Origin: Minisyncoccia bacterium
GTDB taxonomy: Bacteria; Patescibacteriota; Minisyncoccia; Phycocordibacterales; UBA5272
Reading direction: 5' to 3'
Length of the DNA stretch: 64,000 nt
Assembly: GCA_038256975.1 (NCBI GenBank)
Contig: JBBSJU010000003.1
Location: forward strand, 4,807-68,806
Within the stretch, counting starts at the first letter, position 1, and the number at the start of each line of letters is the position of its first letter. Below are positions 10,334 through 41,158 of the stretch, one piece after another. A program made the translations under genes and the position numbers. The notes under the pieces were generated by a model. It searched no databases. It worked only from the letters and a program-made list of their open reading frames with translations, and was not told the DNA's origin.

Positions 10334-13300
10334 TCATGGCTTAATAACGATGTTTATAATGCGATTTGGCACATAGACCACCTTTATTACCTCTTTTCCG
10401 TCTAGATATTTTAACACATTATTTTCATTTAGGGCAGCCCTTTTGACCACATCTTCCCCGGAATTAGTAGCTACCGTGATGGTGCCACGAAGTTTCCCGT
10501 TTATTTGGACACCGATTGTAATTTCATCATCAACGAGAAGCTTTTTGCTGGCTTTTGGCCAAAGACTTGTGTGTATTCCTTCCCTGTTGCCACATTCTTT
10601 GAACAAGTACTCCGTCACATGAGGAATGAAAGGATTTAGTATTTGAAGTATGAGGGAGAAATCTTTTACTGAAACCTTACAACCATCCATCACATTCATC
10701 GTTTCCATAGCCTTAGCAACGGCAGTATTGAAACTATAACTTTCAATATCCTTGGTTACTTTATTGATAAGCTTATGAATTGCTTTTTCAGCCATAGCAT
10801 CACTTTTTAAAACATTTTCTGTAAGAACGGTTTGAGCCTTCTTATACAATCGCTCAATAAATCGCCGACACCCAATAATACTTTCTTCTGACCATGGAAT
10901 AGATTCTCCATACGGACCCATAAAGGCAATGTAAAGGCGAGTAGTATCTGCACCGTATGTTTCCACAACCTCATCAGGATTAACCACATTTCCCCAACGT
11001 TTACTCATTTTTCTTCCGTCAGAAGCCATAATGAAACCATGTGTCACGAGCTGCTTAAAAGGTTCTTCTGTTGGCACCAATCCATAATCTCTAAGAACTT
11101 TGTGCCAAAAACGAGCATACAAAAGATGCCCTGTGGCATGTTCTGACCCACCTAAATACACGTTCACTTGATTCCAATATTTTATTTCCTTTGGATCTGC
11201 AAAAACTTTTTTGTTTTGCGCGTCCATGTAGCGTAGATGATACCAACTTGATCCTGCCCATCCGGGCATAGTATTCGTCTCATAGCCTGCTTTTTTCCAA
11301 GAGGCAATATTTGCAAGAGGACCTTCTCCGGTACCTGTTGGTTCGTATGAAGCCACATCAGGAAGGGTTAACGGCAACTTTTTAACCTCATGAATTAATC
11401 CCTCTTTATCTTTATAGAGCGGAATTGGCTCACCCCAATAGCGCTGTCGTGCAAAAATAGCGTCTCGCATCTTATATCGAGTCACCAGCTTTCCACCAAC
11501 TGATTTTGTAATTTCCTTTTTTGCTTGTGCTGAAGTAAGTCCAGAAAATGTGCCTGAACGCGCCACAACACCTTCTCCAGAAAACGGTAGATTATAGCCG
11601 AATTTCTCTAAAGCATACACATGTAATACTTCCACGATTTCTTTTTTTGCTTGTTCTTTCGATATCCATTCAACTTTGAATTTACCTTTCTCATTGTTTT
11701 CGAGTGCATCGCCCTTGTTTTCAAGATCTTTAAGTTTTATATGTACAAAACGAGTAAACGCCTGATGAGCTACATTTTTAGAAGTGGCAAAATATTTGTA
11801 ATCAAATATTTCTTCACTAAAGGAAACAACCTTTCCATTACAATAACCTGTCTCTTCTTGGAGCTCGCGCAATGCGGTTTGACTTGGCTGTTCACCATTC
11901 TCTACTGTTCCACCGATAAGGAGTCGCCCACCAAGTTCTGGGCCCCAGTTTATTGTTAATACCTTACCGTCAGGGGCTTCAACAAAAGCAACAATTTTAT
12001 TTTTTTGAGTAAAATTTGTAACACCTTTTACGTCCGCACGAACAAAAATTGGATTGATAACATTTTTAATAGGAAGATTATACTTTCGGGCAAATTCAAA
12101 ATCTCGCTCATCGTGTGCAGGCACTCCCATTATTGCGCCAGTTCCATATCCAGGAAGCACGTAATTTGCAATCCAAACAGGAATCTTTTCTTTTGTGCCA
12201 GGATGTGTAGCAAATATCTGTGTAAAAACTCCTGTTTTCTCTTTCGATGCATCAAAATCATTTTTCTCATGATCTTTAATAACATTTTCAATATACTCTT
12301 TAACATCTTTTGTCGTCTGCCATCCAACATTAAGCCACGTTCGCGCAAGCTCGGCTGAAACCGCAAGGAATGTTGCACCGAAGAGCGTGTCCGGACGAGT
12401 CGTGAACACAGTGACTTCATGTTTTCCTTCTGACTGCCCTGGAACATGCAACGTAAAAACAATTTCTGCACCCTCACTTTTTCCAATCCAGTTTTTTTCT
12501 ATTTCCTTTACGTTGTTTGGCCAAGCAATCGTATCTAAGCCAGACAAAAGTCGGTCAGCATACGCAGTGATTCGTAAAAACCATTGCCGAATATTCTTTT
12601 TTGTAACAGGATATCCGCCACGCTCTGATACTGGTCCGTCTTTACTATCGACAATTTCATCGTTAGCAAGCACAGTCCCGAGTGCTTCACACCAATTCAC
12701 CTGGGCAACGCCCTCATATGCAAGACGGTACTTCATCAATGTCTCTTGTTTCTGTAACGGAGACATCTTTTTCCACTCATTTTTATCAAAACCTAAAACT
12801 GTATCCGATACAAAAGCACTTACATTTTGATTTCCTCTTTTTTCAAAAATCTTTACAAGACCCTCAATAGGTAGTGCTTTCTTTTTAGTCGTGTCGTAGT
12901 AGGAACTATAAAGTTTCAAAAATATCCACTGTGTCCATTTGTAATATTCATGGTCAGTTGTATTTATCTTTTTGTCCCAATCAAAAGAAAAACCAAGTTT
13001 TTTGAGTTGCCCTTCGAAGGTTTTTACATTTATCGCAACAGCTTTCTTGGGGTGTACTTTATTTTGTATTGCAAACTGCTCAGCAGGAAGACCGAAGGCG
13101 TCATATCCCATTGGGTTTAAAACATTGAATCCTTCCATACGCTTCTTGCGAGCCACAATGTCTGTTGCGGTATAACTTCGTGGGTGACCTATATGAAGCC
13201 CTACTCCTGACGGGTACGGAATCATCGAAAGAATATAAAACGGTTTTTTTCTTGTCTTCCCACTTGCGAGCGCTTTAAATGGTTTTTCTTTATCCCATTT

Positions 13301-13402
13301 CTTTTGGAGTACTGGTTCTATTTTTTTAGGATCATACGTAACGGGAATACTTGATGCCTTTTTCGTTACCGCCTTTGTTACGTTTTTTTGAACACGTGCC
13401 AT
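10334..13402 (-). CDS. leuS: leucine--tRNA ligase with an inserted Nudix-hydrolase domain
   Basis: HIGH (HIGH at LHIGHPRS) and KMSKS (KMSKR) motifs. The CP1 editing domain ends at MGVPAHDERDFEFARKYNLPIKNVI. After CP1, an extra ~140 aa carries a perfect Nudix box GTVENGEQPSQTALRELQEETGY (G-x5-E-x7-REUxEExGU). Total 1022 aa. Confidence 0.9.
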   Translation of the reverse strand: MARVQKNVTKAVTKKASSIPVTYDPKKIEPVLQKKWDKEKPFKALASGKTRKKPFYILSMIPYPSGVGLHIGHPRSYTATDIVARKKRMEGFNVLNPMGYDAFGLPAEQFAIQNKVHPKKAVAINVKTFEGQLKKLGFSFDWDKKINTTDHEYYKWTQWIFLKLYSSYYDTTKKKALPIEGLVKIFEKRGNQNVSAFVSDTVLGFDKNEWKKMSPLQKQETLMKYRLAYEGVAQVNWCEALGTVLANDEIVDSKDGPVSERGGYPVTKKNIRQWFLRITAYADRLLSGLDTIAWPNNVKEIEKNWIGKSEGAEIVFTLHVPGQSEGKHEVTVFTTRPDTLFGATFLAVSAELARTWLNVGWQTTKDVKEYIENVIKDHEKNDFDASKEKTGVFTQIFATHPGTKEKIPVWIANYVLPGYGTGAIMGVPAHDERDFEFARKYNLPIKNVINPIFVRADVKGVTNFTQKNKIVAFVEAPDGKVLTINWGPELGGRLLIGGTVENGEQPSQTALRELQEETGYCNGKVVSFSEEIFDYKYFATSKNVAHQAFTRFVHIKLKDLENKGDALENNEKGKFKVEWISKEQAKKEIVEVLHVYALEKFGYNLPFSGEGVVARSGTFSGLTSAQAKKEITKSVGGKLVTRYKMRDAIFARQRYWGEPIPLYKDKEGLIHEVKKLPLTLPDVASYEPTGTGEGPLANIASWKKAGYETNTMPGWAGSSWYHLRYMDAQNKKVFADPKEIKYWNQVNVYLGGSEHATGHLLYARFWHKVLRDYGLVPTEEPFKQLVTHGFIMASDGRKMSKRWGNVVNPDEVVETYGADTTRLYIAFMGPYGESIPWSEESIIGCRRFIERLYKKAQTVLTENVLKSDAMAEKAIHKLINKVTKDIESYSFNTAVAKAMETMNVMDGCKVSVKDFSLILQILNPFIPHVTEYLFKECGNREGIHTSLWPKASKKLLVDDEITIGVQINGKLRGTITVATNSGEDVVKRAALNENNVLKYLDGKEVIKVVYVPNRIINIVIKP

Positions 13403-13450
13403 ATATCTACAGAGTGTATCAAAAATAAAACGAAATGGTATATTAAGTAT

Positions 13451-14014
13451 ATGAAAGACAAAAGAGTGCCAAAAAATGTTGATTATTTTGCTGAAAATAT
13501 GACCTTGTGGCTAGGCTCTTTTTCGTCTCTTATTTTACATACGATTTTATTTTGTATTGTTTTATCACTTCCTTTATTTGGTTTCGCTTTAGAAAAAGCC
13601 CTCCTTGTGCTTACAACTGCCGTATCACTTGAAGCAATATATCTTGCTCTTTTCATACAAATGTCAGTAAATCGTAATACCGCCCAACTTGAAGCAGTAG
13701 AAGAAGACCTCGAAGACATCCAAGAGGAAGTGGACGAGATTGGCGAAGACATGGAGGAAATACAAAAAGATGTTGAGGAAATTTCAGAAGACATTGAAGA
13801 GATCAGTGAGGACGTTGAAGGTATCGAAAAAAATGTTCAAGAAATTAGCGCAGACGTCGAAGAAATCCAGGAAGATGTGGCTGAACTTGAAGAAAGTACC
13901 GACTCAGAGATGATTCGAGAACAGAAAGTTGATGGTGAACAACAAGAGAGGATTGCTAAAATTGAAATCTTGCTTTCGGAGTTGAAAAAGGAATTGGGGG
14001 CGATTAAGAAGTAA
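13451..14014 (+). CDS. DUF1003-family membrane protein with acidic heptad-repeat tail
   Basis: Two TM helices, then SLEAIYLALFIQMSVNRNTAQ, which matches the DUF1003 motif (MSQNRQ). Start taken at ATG 13451 (MKDKRV); the ORF track extends to 13388. Confidence 0.6.
   Translation: MKDKRVPKNVDYFAENMTLWLGSFSSLILHTILFCIVLSLPLFGFALEKALLVLTTAVSLEAIYLALFIQMSVNRNTAQLEAVEEDLEDIQEEVDEIGEDMEEIQKDVEEISEDIEEISEDVEGIEKNVQEISADVEEIQEDVAELEESTDSEMIREQKVDGEQQERIAKIEILLSELKKELGAIKK
13709..13897 (+). repeat. 21-bp in-frame tandem repeat x9 encoding acidic heptads (hEEIxED)
   Basis: LEDIQEE VDEIGED MEEIQKD VEEISED IEEISED VEGIEKN VQEISAD VEEIQED VAELEES. Nucleotide periodicity is 21. Confidence 0.8.
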
Positions 14015-14693
14015 AATTGTTACTTTTCTTTTGGGAGATACTCTGACTAAGACCAGCTATTAGTGTAGCCACACCGACAAGGATTGTAGGAAATCCTATG
14101 ATAACGAAAAAAAAGTTACCAATAAACTCATTTCCCGAAGAAAGAAAGTAAAACAAAATAACACTCGTAGCAATTAAAAATTGCGAAATACCTATCTTCG
14201 TATTTGTATGCAATAGATTAAATGCAAGTAGGAGGTTAATAAGAGCAAGAAAAGAAGTAAAAATAACCTTTGCGAGAGTGATAGCATTAACTCCTTCTAT
14301 CACGGAAAAGATTGAATATGTTGTAAGGAAAATACTCCAAATGAAGTAAGGTGATCTAAAATTTTTAATGACTAGTTCTAAAAGAAATACAATTGGTGTT
14401 AAAAATAGTAGAATGAGTGATAAACGTACCTCTGATAAACTTTTGAAACTTGCGAAATTTCCTGCAATCTTTGTTTCAAAAAATAATGAGAAAATCAAAA
14501 CCGTAGCCATTATTTCAAAAAGATTTACGAAACGATTTGTTGGGACTATATCAAAAGCTAGTATAAGTTGAGTTATACCTAATATACCAAGCACGACGGG
14601 AAACAGTACAGGGACACCGTCCGTATATATAAACATCGCATACATTAAAATAAAAAAGCTTGATGCGAGATAAAGTGGTTTAATGTTTTGCAT
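14004..14693 (-). CDS. polytopic membrane protein (6-7 TM helices), function unknown
   Basis: 229-aa ORF, highly hydrophobic. Confidence 0.5.
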   Translation of the reverse strand: MQNIKPLYLASSFFILMYAMFIYTDGVPVLFPVVLGILGITQLILAFDIVPTNRFVNLFEIMATVLIFSLFFETKIAGNFASFKSLSEVRLSLILLFLTPIVFLLELVIKNFRSPYFIWSIFLTTYSIFSVIEGVNAITLAKVIFTSFLALINLLLAFNLLHTNTKIGISQFLIATSVILFYFLSSGNEFIGNFFFVIIGFPTILVGVATLIAGLSQSISQKKSNNFTS

Positions 14694-23185: not shown

Positions 23186-23261
23186 GGGCCCTTAGCTCAT
23201 TTGGTAGAGCACTGGTTTTGCACTCCAGAGGTGAGCGGTTCGAATCCGCTAGGGTCCACCA
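23186..23261 (+). tRNA. tRNA-Ala (anticodon TGC), CCA encoded
   Basis: Cloverleaf folds by hand. Acceptor gggccct/agggtcc carries the G3:U70 identity pair of tRNA-Ala. Anticodon loop ttTGCac. T-arm agcgg-ttcgaat-ccgct. 3' CCA present. Confidence 0.9.
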
Positions 23262-41086: not shown

Positions 41087-41158
41087 GGCCCTATCGTCTA
41101 GTGGTTAGGACAGCGGGTTCTCAATCCGTCAACCGGAGTTCGACTCTCCGTAGGGTCA
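41087..41158 (+). tRNA. tRNA-Glu (anticodon CTC), CCA not encoded
   Basis: Acceptor ggcccta/tagggtc. D-arm tcgtctagtggttaggaca, typical of Glu/Gln tRNAs. Anticodon loop ttCTCaa. T-arm cggag-ttcgact-ctccg. Discriminator A. Confidence 0.85.

Follow-up and report, generated by a model that had tools for sequence, protein, structure and literature searches.

A Nudix domain within the CP1 editing domain of a leucyl-tRNA synthetase from Patescibacteria

Why would a leucyl-tRNA synthetase (LeuRS) carry a Nudix hydrolase domain, and what might such a domain act on? In the cell, Ap4A-type alarmones have their classic source in aminoacyl-tRNA synthetases, and Nudix enzymes offer a classic route for their removal. 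The question is raised by leuS, the sole large open reading frame in its region and encoded on the minus strand of the 64-kb stretch of DNA analyzed here (the window). A first-pass annotation had described its product as a full-length LeuRS of 1022 aa with an embedded Nudix domain, and profile searches bore this out. The protein scores 853.9 bits against TIGR00396 (leuS_bact), above the equivalog cut-off of 548.4, and matches the Pfam NUDIX model PF00293 with 46.5 bits (E 4.9e-12, gathering score 21.1), or 50.6 bits when the segment is excised and searched alone. The features of the gene, in the order of the protein, are:

10334..13402, minus strand: leuS, 1022-aa bacterial-type leucyl-tRNA synthetase with insert (open reading frame, TIGR00396, Pfam and AF2 model)
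13184..13195, minus strand: class I HIGH signature in the catalytic site, residues 70-73 (translation and alignment)
12050..12496, minus strand: CP1 editing domain, N-terminal part, residues 303-451 (PF13603 positions 1-150 of 185, 187.4 bits)
12386..12403, minus strand: Thr-rich TTRPDT motif of CP1, residues 334-339 (translation)
12101..12145, minus strand: CP1 motif with the editing residue Asp431 (translation)
11573..12049, minus strand: inserted Nudix domain, residues 452-610, about 158 aa (alignment with ordinary bacterial LeuRS)
11642..11992, minus strand: Pfam NUDIX match PF00293, residues 471-587 (Pfam)
11843..11911, minus strand: Nudix box GTVENGEQPSQTALRELQEETGY, catalytic metal-binding helix, residues 498-520 (motif match and translation)
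11777..11794, minus strand: YFATSK, residues 537-542, candidate base-stacking and phosphate-binding residues (putative role, from conservation)
11666..11692, minus strand: E571...W579, conserved outside the box, with E571 a candidate additional metal ligand or catalytic base (putative role, from conservation)
11438..11572, minus strand: C-terminal rest of CP1, leading back into the catalytic core, residues 611-655, GVVARSGTFSGL...RQRY (alignment)
10997..11011, minus strand: KMSKR (KMSKS-type) loop of the catalytic site, residues 798-802 (translation and alignment)

Pfam recognizes tRNA-synt_1, tRNA-synt_1_2 and Anticodon_1 domains in the LeuRS, and an AF2 model of the whole protein (pLDDT 87.6) has a TM score of 0.82 against E. 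coli LeuRS 4aq7. In an alignment of 80 sequences, H70, G72 and H73 of the HIGH signature and S800, K801 and R802 of the KMSKR loop are invariant, as are the editing residues T334, T335, G420-G422 and D431. We conclude that the gene product is a complete bacterial LeuRS with intact editing residues.

The Nudix domain lies inside CP1 rather than after it, as had been supposed. The insertion point falls at about position 150 of the 185 in the editing-domain model PF13603, and the rest of CP1 (GVVARSGTFSGL...) resumes after the insert. There, residues 611-655 align with residues 378-472 of T. thermophilus LeuRS and 397-476 of E. coli LeuRS, and G611 is invariant in the 80-sequence alignment. The loop that has been replaced comprises T. 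thermophilus residues 364-377; in E. coli LeuRS, numbered as in the crystal construct, it corresponds to residues 381-396. The extent proposed at first (11603-12040, about 140 aa) falls within the insert but is too short, as the inserted segment runs from 11573 to 12049. The structural model predicts a complete Nudix fold, with a mixed sheet and the catalytic helix. The architecture is best explained as a clean domain-in-loop insertion, in which a complete Nudix domain with adjacent N and C termini takes the place of a surface loop of CP1. Alignment with insert-less relatives and with LeuRS of known structure ruled out that the segment is an ordinary LeuRS subdomain, a possibility raised in the first-pass annotation; none matches it. 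A chance motif or a chimeric assembly is ruled out as well, since well over a hundred independent clusters share the architecture. The GC content of the insert is 0.376, compared to 0.401 in the rest of leuS, and its GC3 is 0.263, compared to 0.326. With a small GC gap and a somewhat larger GC3 gap, we found nothing in favor of a recent foreign origin.

The box GTVENGEQPSQTALRELQEETGY fits the pattern GX5EX7REUXEEXGU at all fixed positions, and its final "U" is Tyr, as in 61 of 76 family members. It had been reported as a perfect match at 11843..11914; the match stands, while the interval was one codon too long. A strict regular expression for the box finds this single match in all six frames of the 64 kb, so it is not a chance match. 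Its residues are also conserved in orthologs, being kept in 74-76 of 76 insert-bearing LeuRS (G498 in 76, E504 in 74, R512 in 74, E513 in 76, E516 in 75, E517 in 76 and G519 in 75), and the conservation of the catalytic residues holds down to about 20% insert identity. Outside the box, position 537, 17 residues downstream, is Tyr in 38, Phe in 35 and Trp in one of the 76 sequences, with Tyr in the window's protein, and K542 is kept in 73. This YFATSK segment aligns with YWYTLK of the Aquifex Ap4A hydrolase 3i7u. Additionally, 73 of the 76 sequences have an acidic residue (Glu or Asp) at position 571, and W579 is present in 75. In a comparison with the 88%-identical relative L001, the insert has a dN/dS of 0.070 and the LeuRS core one of 0.072, demonstrating that the insert is under purifying selection at the level of the core. 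Because the box residues are so widely kept and the dN/dS of the insert is low, the Nudix domain is most likely catalytically active.

Is the fusion peculiar to this genome? An insert occurs at the same site in 75 of the 120 closest homologues, and its carriers are Patescibacteria, including Paceibacterota and Saccharimonadales. Searching 1.84 billion representative sequences with a profile of the insert returned at least 186 clusters (50% identity) at E <= 1e-30. Of the top 149 clusters, 117 have LeuRS flanks by BLAST, and five more have CP1 flanks by Pfam. The insert is absent from LeuRS of known structure (E. coli and T. thermophilus) and from the non-Patescibacteria LeuRS loci that we fetched. 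The first-pass annotation was not aware of this as a standard LeuRS feature; in Patescibacteria, the insert is common. A single-protein locus scan returned one close genome only, that of L001, a Candidatus Paceibacterota. Relatives whose LeuRS cores are 68-88% identical have either no insert or a Nudix domain of a different lineage, from which we infer that LeuRS does not need the insert; at the level of sequence comparison, it is dispensable. One relative (P0004) has an 88%-identical core and no insert; here, an initial MAFFT alignment suggested that traces of a lost Nudix domain might persist. Targeted protein and DNA alignments did not support this and detected no convincing Nudix remnant.

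Free-standing members of the subfamily are also found near synthetase genes. Two of them, P0146 and P0195, lie 2-3 nt upstream of leuS; P0146 adjoins a LeuRS that already bears its own Nudix domain, and P0195 adjoins an insert-less LeuRS on three contigs. A third (P0216) follows argS, which encodes arginyl-tRNA synthetase, by 12 nt and is near another class I synthetase, and a fourth (P0225) is upstream of a class-I-synthetase-like reading frame. In all, a class I synthetase gene is adjacent in four of seven informative free-standing contexts. Elsewhere, on three contigs, a free-standing member follows fpg (mutM) by 4 nt, with ruvA and polA nearby, and at locus L022 Nudix genes are mixed with those for dUTPase and thymidylate kinase. 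Some homologous LeuRS contain other domains, namely Ham1/ITPase, HAD phosphatase and an inserted ASCH domain. Both the recurrence of the module across the group and its linkage to synthetases in gene neighborhoods are plain from these data. As far as sequence and gene order can tell, the best explanation is that the Nudix module is a class I synthetase-linked accessory in Patescibacteria, either fused or encoded by a separate gene just upstream of leuS.

What the domain may hydrolyze has to be approached through known Nudix families. Those closest to it are small enzymes of the RppH, Ap4A-hydrolase and MutT types, and no curated subfamily model comes near its cut-off. The window's insert fails both the RppH model (NF001938 and its siblings; 21.7 bits, cut-off 116) and the MutT models (TIGR00586, 22.5 bits, cut-off 97.9; NF008044, 23.2 bits, cut-off 148). 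The best PDB sequence match of the window's insert is the Aquifex Ap4A hydrolase 3i7u, and the top PDB matches of the insert profile are 2azw, the lupin Ap4A hydrolase 1f3y and 3i7u. Seventy-six inserts have a median pI of 5.7, with none above 8. Subfamily markers have been described for ADP-ribose pyrophosphatases (a Pro that is conserved at box +16), NADH pyrophosphatases (the motif SQPWPFPXS after the box) and ApnA pyrophosphatases (an invariant tyrosine downstream of the box) (PMC6856373). The Pro is absent from the insert: the window's protein has Lys at position 536, and the family has Glu, His or Lys there. The SQPWPFPXS motif of NudC is likewise absent, with the NudC model NF001299 matching just 6 of 39 members, and so are the CoA-pyrophosphatase markers that we looked for. 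The ApnA tyrosine is reportedly found 17-18 residues after the box (Dunn et al. 1999), and Y537, at box +17, may be in keeping with it; across the family this position is aromatic (Tyr or Phe in all but three of the 76 sequences, one of these with Trp) but not invariantly Tyr.

Aminoacyl-tRNA synthetases make Ap3-5N, which Nudix enzymes degrade asymmetrically, and RppH (NudH/IalA/YgdP) is an ApnA hydrolase too (PMC7705103). The reading that we favor, at somewhat short of an even chance, is an editing-competent LeuRS with an active Nudix domain in its CP1 loop and with Ap4A or Ap4N as the best guess for its substrate. Using its box glutamates to coordinate Mg2+, the domain would hydrolyze nucleoside polyphosphates at a pyrophosphate bond. 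The substrates would be dinucleoside polyphosphates such as Ap4A and Ap4N, side-products of the reaction between the aminoacyl-adenylate and ATP or another NTP. Asymmetric cleavage would yield an NTP and AMP, giving the synthetase its own hydrolase for an alarmone or by-product, and the module would not be required for aminoacylation itself. The acidic pI may suit a small-molecule enzyme. As to which substrate is cleaved, and whether there is coupling in cis, we can only guess, with Ap4A/Ap4N favored by analogy with known enzymes. Several points speak against Ap4A. The marker position holds Phe rather than Tyr in half of the family, and curated subfamily scores fall far under their cut-offs. 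The fpg-Nudix operon and the homologues with Ham1 or HAD domains point toward general cleaning of the nucleotide pool. Several Ap4A hydrolases have a Lys just before the box Gly; our alignment places it in the Aquifex enzyme, and it is missing from the insert. Any coupling to LeuRS chemistry must be dispensable, since relatives with cores 68-88% identical have no insert or one from a different Nudix lineage. Additionally, LeuRS is said to fall outside the strongest Ap4A producers (Goerlich et al. 1982).

The chief competitor of Ap4A hydrolysis, which we consider possible though rather unlikely, is MutT-type house-cleaning of oxidized or non-canonical (d)NTPs, in which the Nudix domain would ride on LeuRS with no chemical coupling to leucylation. 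The CP1 loop would merely tolerate insertions, and fusion or operon placement would secure constitutive co-expression in a tiny genome. The free-standing member next to fpg resembles the 8-oxoguanine (GO) system, in which MutM and MutT act together, and Ham1/ITPase and HAD phosphatase domains in homologous LeuRS, the dUTPase and thymidylate kinase genes at L022, and the acidity of the domain all agree with pool cleaning. So does the gain, loss and swapping of the insert among close relatives. MutT models match 13-15 of 39 members and MutT structures are among the PDB matches. These models, however, are matched less often and more weakly than those for RppH, and far under their cut-offs, and tolerance of the loop alone hardly explains near-exclusive embedding in LeuRS and class I synthetase adjacency in four of seven contexts. 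Of the curated families, RppH is the one whose models match the largest number of members (36 of 39, with a best E of 2.6e-12, always far below cut-off). In Foldseek, the 2nd and 6th-9th places go to E. coli RppH structures, and decapping effectors such as AvrM14 score high. An RppH-like enzyme would remove pyrophosphate from RNA 5' ends or decap them (5'-tri/diphosphate, Np4 or NAD-type caps), with LeuRS bringing the acceptor end of tRNALeu or another RNA close. CP1 handles the tRNA acceptor end, and the ASCH domain inserted in some homologues belongs to a type that is often RNA-associated. Against this, all 76 inserts are acidic, none with a pI above 8, unlike the strongly basic RppH; the scores fall far under RppH cut-offs; and the 5' end of mature tRNA is normally a monophosphate, generated by RNase P. 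We regard RNA 5'-end processing as improbable.

The first-pass annotation had suggested that the module could clear (mis)activated aminoacyl-adenylates released from the synthetic site, a form of pre-transfer proofreading. Its sole support is location in the proofreading domain of an adenylate-making enzyme, and we give it the least credence of all. Aminoacyl-AMP has a single phosphate in an acyl-phosphate anhydride and is not a typical substrate of Nudix enzymes, which cleave pyrophosphate linkages; the enzymes known to hydrolyze adenylates are HIT proteins and synthetases. Moreover, the hydrolytic editing residues of CP1 are intact, and close relatives live without the insert. Only slightly less far-fetched is a domain without catalytic activity that binds nucleotides or has a structural role, either as a sensor regulating LeuRS or as a docking surface. 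Non-enzymatic Nudix domains do exist in NrtR, CFIm25 and AraR, which are among the distant matches of the insert, and the insert is dispensable in relatives. Despite deep divergence, however, 74-76 of 76 sequences retain E504, R512, E513, E516 and E517, which would be unexpected in a pseudo-enzyme. A broader view, unlikely in our estimation and yet well ahead of these two, takes the CP1 of Patescibacteria as a modular platform for nucleotide- or RNA-directed hydrolases acting in cis with LeuRS, the Nudix domain here destroying Ap4N or processing an RNA polyphosphate or cap. Besides Nudix domains, of which there are one to three, the guests that can be named for such a platform are Ham1, HAD, ASCH and an alpha/beta-hydrolase. 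If true, LeuRS would have a built-in second quality-control activity, found in no characterized synthetase.

Our literature searches on Nudix domains together with LeuRS, synthetases or the candidate phyla radiation found no description of a LeuRS-Nudix fusion. A review of the Nudix clan does not mention tRNA or synthetases, and neither a beta-grasp survey nor a paper on CPR synthetases has anything on LeuRS-Nudix. With a Nudix domain of its own that selection maintains, a synthetase would bring the making and removal of Ap4A-type alarmones into physical connection, as would the operon variant with leuS. The CP1 domain of LeuRS in candidate-phyla-radiation bacteria is also a hot spot for the gain of accessory hydrolase domains, which bears on how minimal-genome organisms package housekeeping functions. 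The architecture lends itself to study in vitro, being one polypeptide with a mutable Nudix box. NCBI names many LeuRS-Nudix proteins merely "class I tRNA ligase family protein", and NCBIfam has no model for LeuRS with Nudix; a dedicated family model would mend this downgraded automated annotation.

Placed beside the LeuRS of E. coli (4AQ7/4ARC) and T. thermophilus (1H3N/2BYT), the window's enzyme shares the HIGH signature, the KMSKS-type loop and the Thr-rich and Asp editing residues, and it also has the anticodon-binding and C-terminal domains. It differs in its Nudix domain of about 158 aa, where the others have a CP1 loop of 14-16 residues, and in a lineage-specific stretch of about 60 aa (about residues 165-225), placed between the catalytic core and CP1. 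With small monomeric Nudix hydrolases, namely Ap4A/Ap6A hydrolases (3I7U, 1F3Y, T. thermophilus Ndx1 1VC8 and human NUDT2) and RppH/NudH, the insert has in common the fold, the full Nudix box and an aromatic residue at box +17; the Lys five residues further aligns with the Aquifex enzyme. Identity to this group is only 14-22%, however, and the insert is acidic and embedded in a synthetase rather than free-standing. The Enterococcus faecalis MutT/Nudix protein 2AZW, an uncharacterized structural genomics target, is 16-17% identical and permits no functional transfer. Among the NCBIfam matches of the window's LeuRS is NF040702, an isoleucine-tRNA ligase with an N-acetyltransferase domain. Although its guest domain and host enzyme are both different, it is likewise a class I synthetase of the Ile/Leu/Val group that hosts an unrelated enzyme domain.

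The noted region, 11603..12040, falls within a single long minus-strand open reading frame (10334..13402) whose 1022-aa product is a bacterial leucyl-tRNA synthetase (LeuRS). It scores 853.9 bits against NCBIfam TIGR00396 (cut-off 548.4), and Pfam assigns to it a class I catalytic core, the editing domain CP1 (LeuRS family PF13603) and an anticodon-binding domain. Modeled in full by AlphaFold2 (pLDDT 87.6), the enzyme aligns to E. coli LeuRS-tRNA complexes with a TM score of 0.82 over the full target.

Features of the window LeuRS; the four synthetase and editing motifs are invariant in an 80-sequence alignment
Residues 70-73: HIGH
Residues 334-339: TTRPDT, Thr-rich editing motif
CP1: Asp431 editing motif (15-residue stretch)
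Residues 798-802: KMSKR
11573..12049, minus strand, residues 452-610: insert of ~158 residues in place of a 14-16-residue loop
11843..11911, minus strand, residues 498-520: Nudix box GTVENGEQPSQTALRELQEETGY, fitting all fixed positions

The Pfam NUDIX model matches residues 471-587 with 46.5 bits in the whole protein (gathering score 21.1, E 4.9e-12) and with 50.6 bits in the excised segment. Searching a six-frame translation of the 64-kb window with the strict Nudix-box pattern gave no second match anywhere. Because the pattern is unique in the window, the Pfam match is clear and the box fits at each fixed position, the Nudix domain reported in the first-pass annotation is real and a chance match is excluded. 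That annotation had placed the extra segment after CP1; instead, it lies inside the domain. The PF13603 model is split, with positions 1-150 of 185 matched ahead of the insert and the remaining CP1 (GVVARSGTFSGLTSAQAKK...RQRYWGEPIP) following it. The alignment of T. thermophilus LeuRS with the window protein runs to residue 363 and picks up again at 378, and that of the E. coli LeuRS crystal construct breaks off at 380 and resumes at 397, so a 14-16-residue loop has been swapped for ~158 residues. Across this region, an alignment of 121 sequences resolves into two clean classes, of ~186 residues or ~37.

Modeled with 39 homologous inserts, the excised segment is predicted by AlphaFold2 to adopt a full Nudix fold (pLDDT 92.7, pTM 0.87), and Foldseek returned 554 PDB matches to this model at E <= 1e-3. 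We assessed conservation in 76 insert-bearing sequences, the window and 75 homologues. The catalytic positions are nearly invariant (G498 in 76, E504 in 74, R512 in 74, E513 in 76, E516 in 75, E517 in 76 and G519 in 75), and they stay so in inserts with as little as ~20% identity to that of the window. Outside the box, R/K467 is kept in 74 of the 76, an aromatic residue at 537 in 74, K542 and E/D571 in 73 each, W579 in 75 and W486 in 54. Comparing the window with an 88%-identical relative from a Candidatus Paceibacterota genome gave Nei-Gojobori dN/dS values of 0.070 (insert), 0.072 (LeuRS core) and 0.076 (CP1 part); purifying selection on the insert is as strong as on the essential enzyme around it. 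Together, the conserved catalytic residues and a dN/dS equal to that of the core argue that the Nudix insert is likely to be catalytically active, and a non-catalytic insert appears very improbable.

The insert occupies the same site in 75 of the 120 best homologues from a 5.8-billion-protein collection. Source labels, where given, read Candidatus Paceibacterota/Pacebacteria, Patescibacteria group and Minisyncoccia, plus a single 'Nitrospira sp.' that could reflect misbinning. When 1.84 billion cluster representatives were searched with an insert profile, 186 clusters matched at E <= 1e-30, a number that rises to 1816 at E <= 1e-10. LeuRS sequence flanks the Nudix domain in 117 of the 149 top matches, and Pfam detects CP1 flanks in five more. 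One match is a named LeuRS of Candidatus Saccharimonadales, so the architecture spans several candidate phyla radiation classes. The non-Patescibacteria LeuRS loci retrieved for comparison had no Nudix box within 6 kb.

We ranked homologues by identity to the window LeuRS core, with the insert masked.

Core and insert identity to the window LeuRS
P0001, P0002: core 0.92, 0.89; insert 0.90, 0.88
P0003: core 0.75; insert 0.69
P0025: core 0.59; insert 0.58
P0004: core 0.88; without insert
17 further clusters: core 0.68-0.82; without insert
P0005, P0012, P0006: core 0.79-0.82; insert 0.22-0.26

The first four proteins are consistent with vertical descent of the window insert type, and P0005, P0012 and P0006 carry a different Nudix lineage. 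The insert-less and other-lineage relatives therefore indicate frequent gain, loss or replacement at the CP1 loop. Since close relatives lack the insert, LeuRS functions without it.

We looked up eight free-standing Nudix proteins of the same subfamily (160-180 aa); the contig of one, P0211, is too short to show its neighbours, leaving seven informative contexts, in four of which class I synthetase genes adjoin. P0146 stops 2 nt ahead of a LeuRS gene in a locus that shares the window synteny (ychF ... leuS, sigma70_r4/HARE-HTH gene, DUF8128 gene, yceG). On three contigs (L013:3451-5303, L014:492-3217, L015:639-2488), P0195 (161 aa) stops 3 nt ahead of an insert-less LeuRS gene, the unfused counterpart of the window architecture. 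P0225 is followed by a 208-aa reading frame resembling only LeuRS residues 766-895, the catalytic-core end and anticodon-binding region (L019:40-1218, L020:35-1012); this frame could represent either a gene fragment or a mini class-I-synthetase-like protein. P0216 comes after argS at a distance of 12 nt, and a gene for a 1184-aa class I synthetase follows ~600 nt further on. P0179 follows fpg/mutM with a 4-nt gap and overlaps the gene of a SpoU methylase, with ruvA and polA near (L010:4016-5513, also L011 and L012), which hints at a MutT-like role for this member at least. P0199 adjoins another Nudix gene, and P0226 has no neighbour of these kinds. Fusion in some genomes and operonic placement in others is a classic signature of functional association, and at minimum implies obligatory co-expression of Nudix and synthetase.

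Two loci have further features. The P0216 locus (L022:1-10498) interleaves nucleotide-metabolism and synthetase genes in the order Nudix, thymidylate kinase, zeta-toxin-like gene, Nudix, dUTPase, ArgRS, Nudix (P0216), 1184-aa class I synthetase, Nudix; the 1184-aa synthetase holds an inserted His_Phos_1 phosphatase domain. In the locus of P0004, the nearest relative without the insert (core identity 88%), ychF and leuS have a His_Phos_1 phosphatase gene between them (L025:4857-5399); in its place the window encodes a membrane protein of 229 aa (14004..14693) with no Pfam match. Synteny is otherwise conserved (ychF, leuS, HARE-HTH gene, DUF8128, yceG, RNase T, mnmA).

What the domain hydrolyzes must be judged from family resemblance and context. 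Neither the window insert nor its family comes near the cut-off of any curated Nudix subfamily model. Several results favour dinucleoside-polyphosphate or RppH-type enzymes. The best PDB sequence match of the insert is the Aquifex Ap4A hydrolase; its profile ranks 2azw (uncharacterised) and the lupin and Aquifex Ap4A hydrolases as the top three, and the top Foldseek matches include RppH, Ap4A and Ap6A hydrolases. RppH models match 36 of 39 members, MutT models 13-15. Classical subfamilies carry markers downstream of the box, Pro in ADP-ribose enzymes and SQPWPFPXS in NADH enzymes (PMC6856373); both are missing from the window and family alignment. Seventeen positions after the box, the window has Tyr, and the family has Tyr in 38 and Phe in 35 of 76. 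Synthetases form Ap3-5N out of their adenylate, and the Nudix enzymes RppH/NudH/IalA, NUDT2 and MutT1 cleave Ap4A asymmetrically (PMC7705103); a module on or next to the synthetase that would clear Ap4N-type by-products is therefore a coherent mechanism. An Ap4N-type hydrolase is our tentative choice, at slightly under an even chance.

General cleaning of the nucleotide pool by a MutT-type enzyme is a possibility we consider rather unlikely: the fpg-Nudix operon, the Ham1 and HAD domains that some LeuRS homologues carry and the dUTPase and thymidylate kinase beside Nudix genes in L022 speak for it, but MutT models match fewer members than RppH models, all far from cut-offs. Those RppH matches, with RppH among the top structural hits, would also suit an enzyme acting on RNA 5' ends, which we find doubtful because the inserts are acidic throughout (median pI 5.7, none > 8), a property that suits an enzyme of small molecules better than a protein binding RNA ends unaided. 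Aminoacyl-adenylates, proposed as a substrate in the first-pass annotation, are the least credible candidate, since Nudix chemistry makes their hydrolysis unlikely and CP1 keeps its own editing residues.

Several Patescibacteria LeuRS homologues carry further guest domains (P0028, P0051, P0057, P0191, P0126, P0024, P0064, P0122). A second guest site just ahead of CP1 holds Ham1/ITPase, ASCH, an alpha/beta- or Ser-hydrolase, or another Nudix; P0024 has a HAD phosphatase after the Nudix, and P0064, P0051 and P0122 have two or three tandem Nudix copies. These sequences make CP1 an apparent hot spot for the gain of hydrolase domains. Between its catalytic core and CP1, the window LeuRS also contains a segment of ~60 aa (YDTTKKKALPIEGLVKIFEKRGNQ...KYRLAYEG; residues ~165-225, approx. 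12740..12910), conserved in the close family and absent from many other insert-bearing LeuRS; without it, the Nudix begins near residue 373, versus 437-452.

Divergent from leuS, a plus-strand reading frame (13388..14014), with an equivalent upstream of leuS in L025, encodes a protein that is hydrophobic near its N terminus and has a repetitive, strongly acidic coiled-coil region (EEDLEDIQEEVDEIGEDMEEIQKDVEEISEDIEEISEDVEGIE...); it hits DUF948 weakly, below cut-off. As listed, the frame starts at a TTG and shares 15 nt with the region of the leuS start codon, so translation probably begins at a later codon. At the gathering threshold, Rfam found no family in the 64-kb window besides two tRNA genes.

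23186..23258, plus strand: tRNA gene
41087..41158, plus strand: tRNA gene

These LeuRS sequences are publicly available, with the NUDIX domain tagged by automated pipelines; many of these proteins are named merely 'class I tRNA ligase family protein'. Our full-text literature searches found no paper describing the LeuRS-Nudix architecture; a comprehensive review of the Nudix clan is silent on tRNA and synthetases, and a study of unusual candidate phyla radiation synthetases makes no mention of LeuRS-Nudix. We rate both the enzyme and its guest domain as known, and their arrangement as undescribed yet widespread and selectively maintained. NCBIfam has no model for LeuRS with Nudix but a special one for IleRS with an acetyltransferase domain, which is likewise a synthetase bearing an extra enzyme domain, although both guest and host differ.
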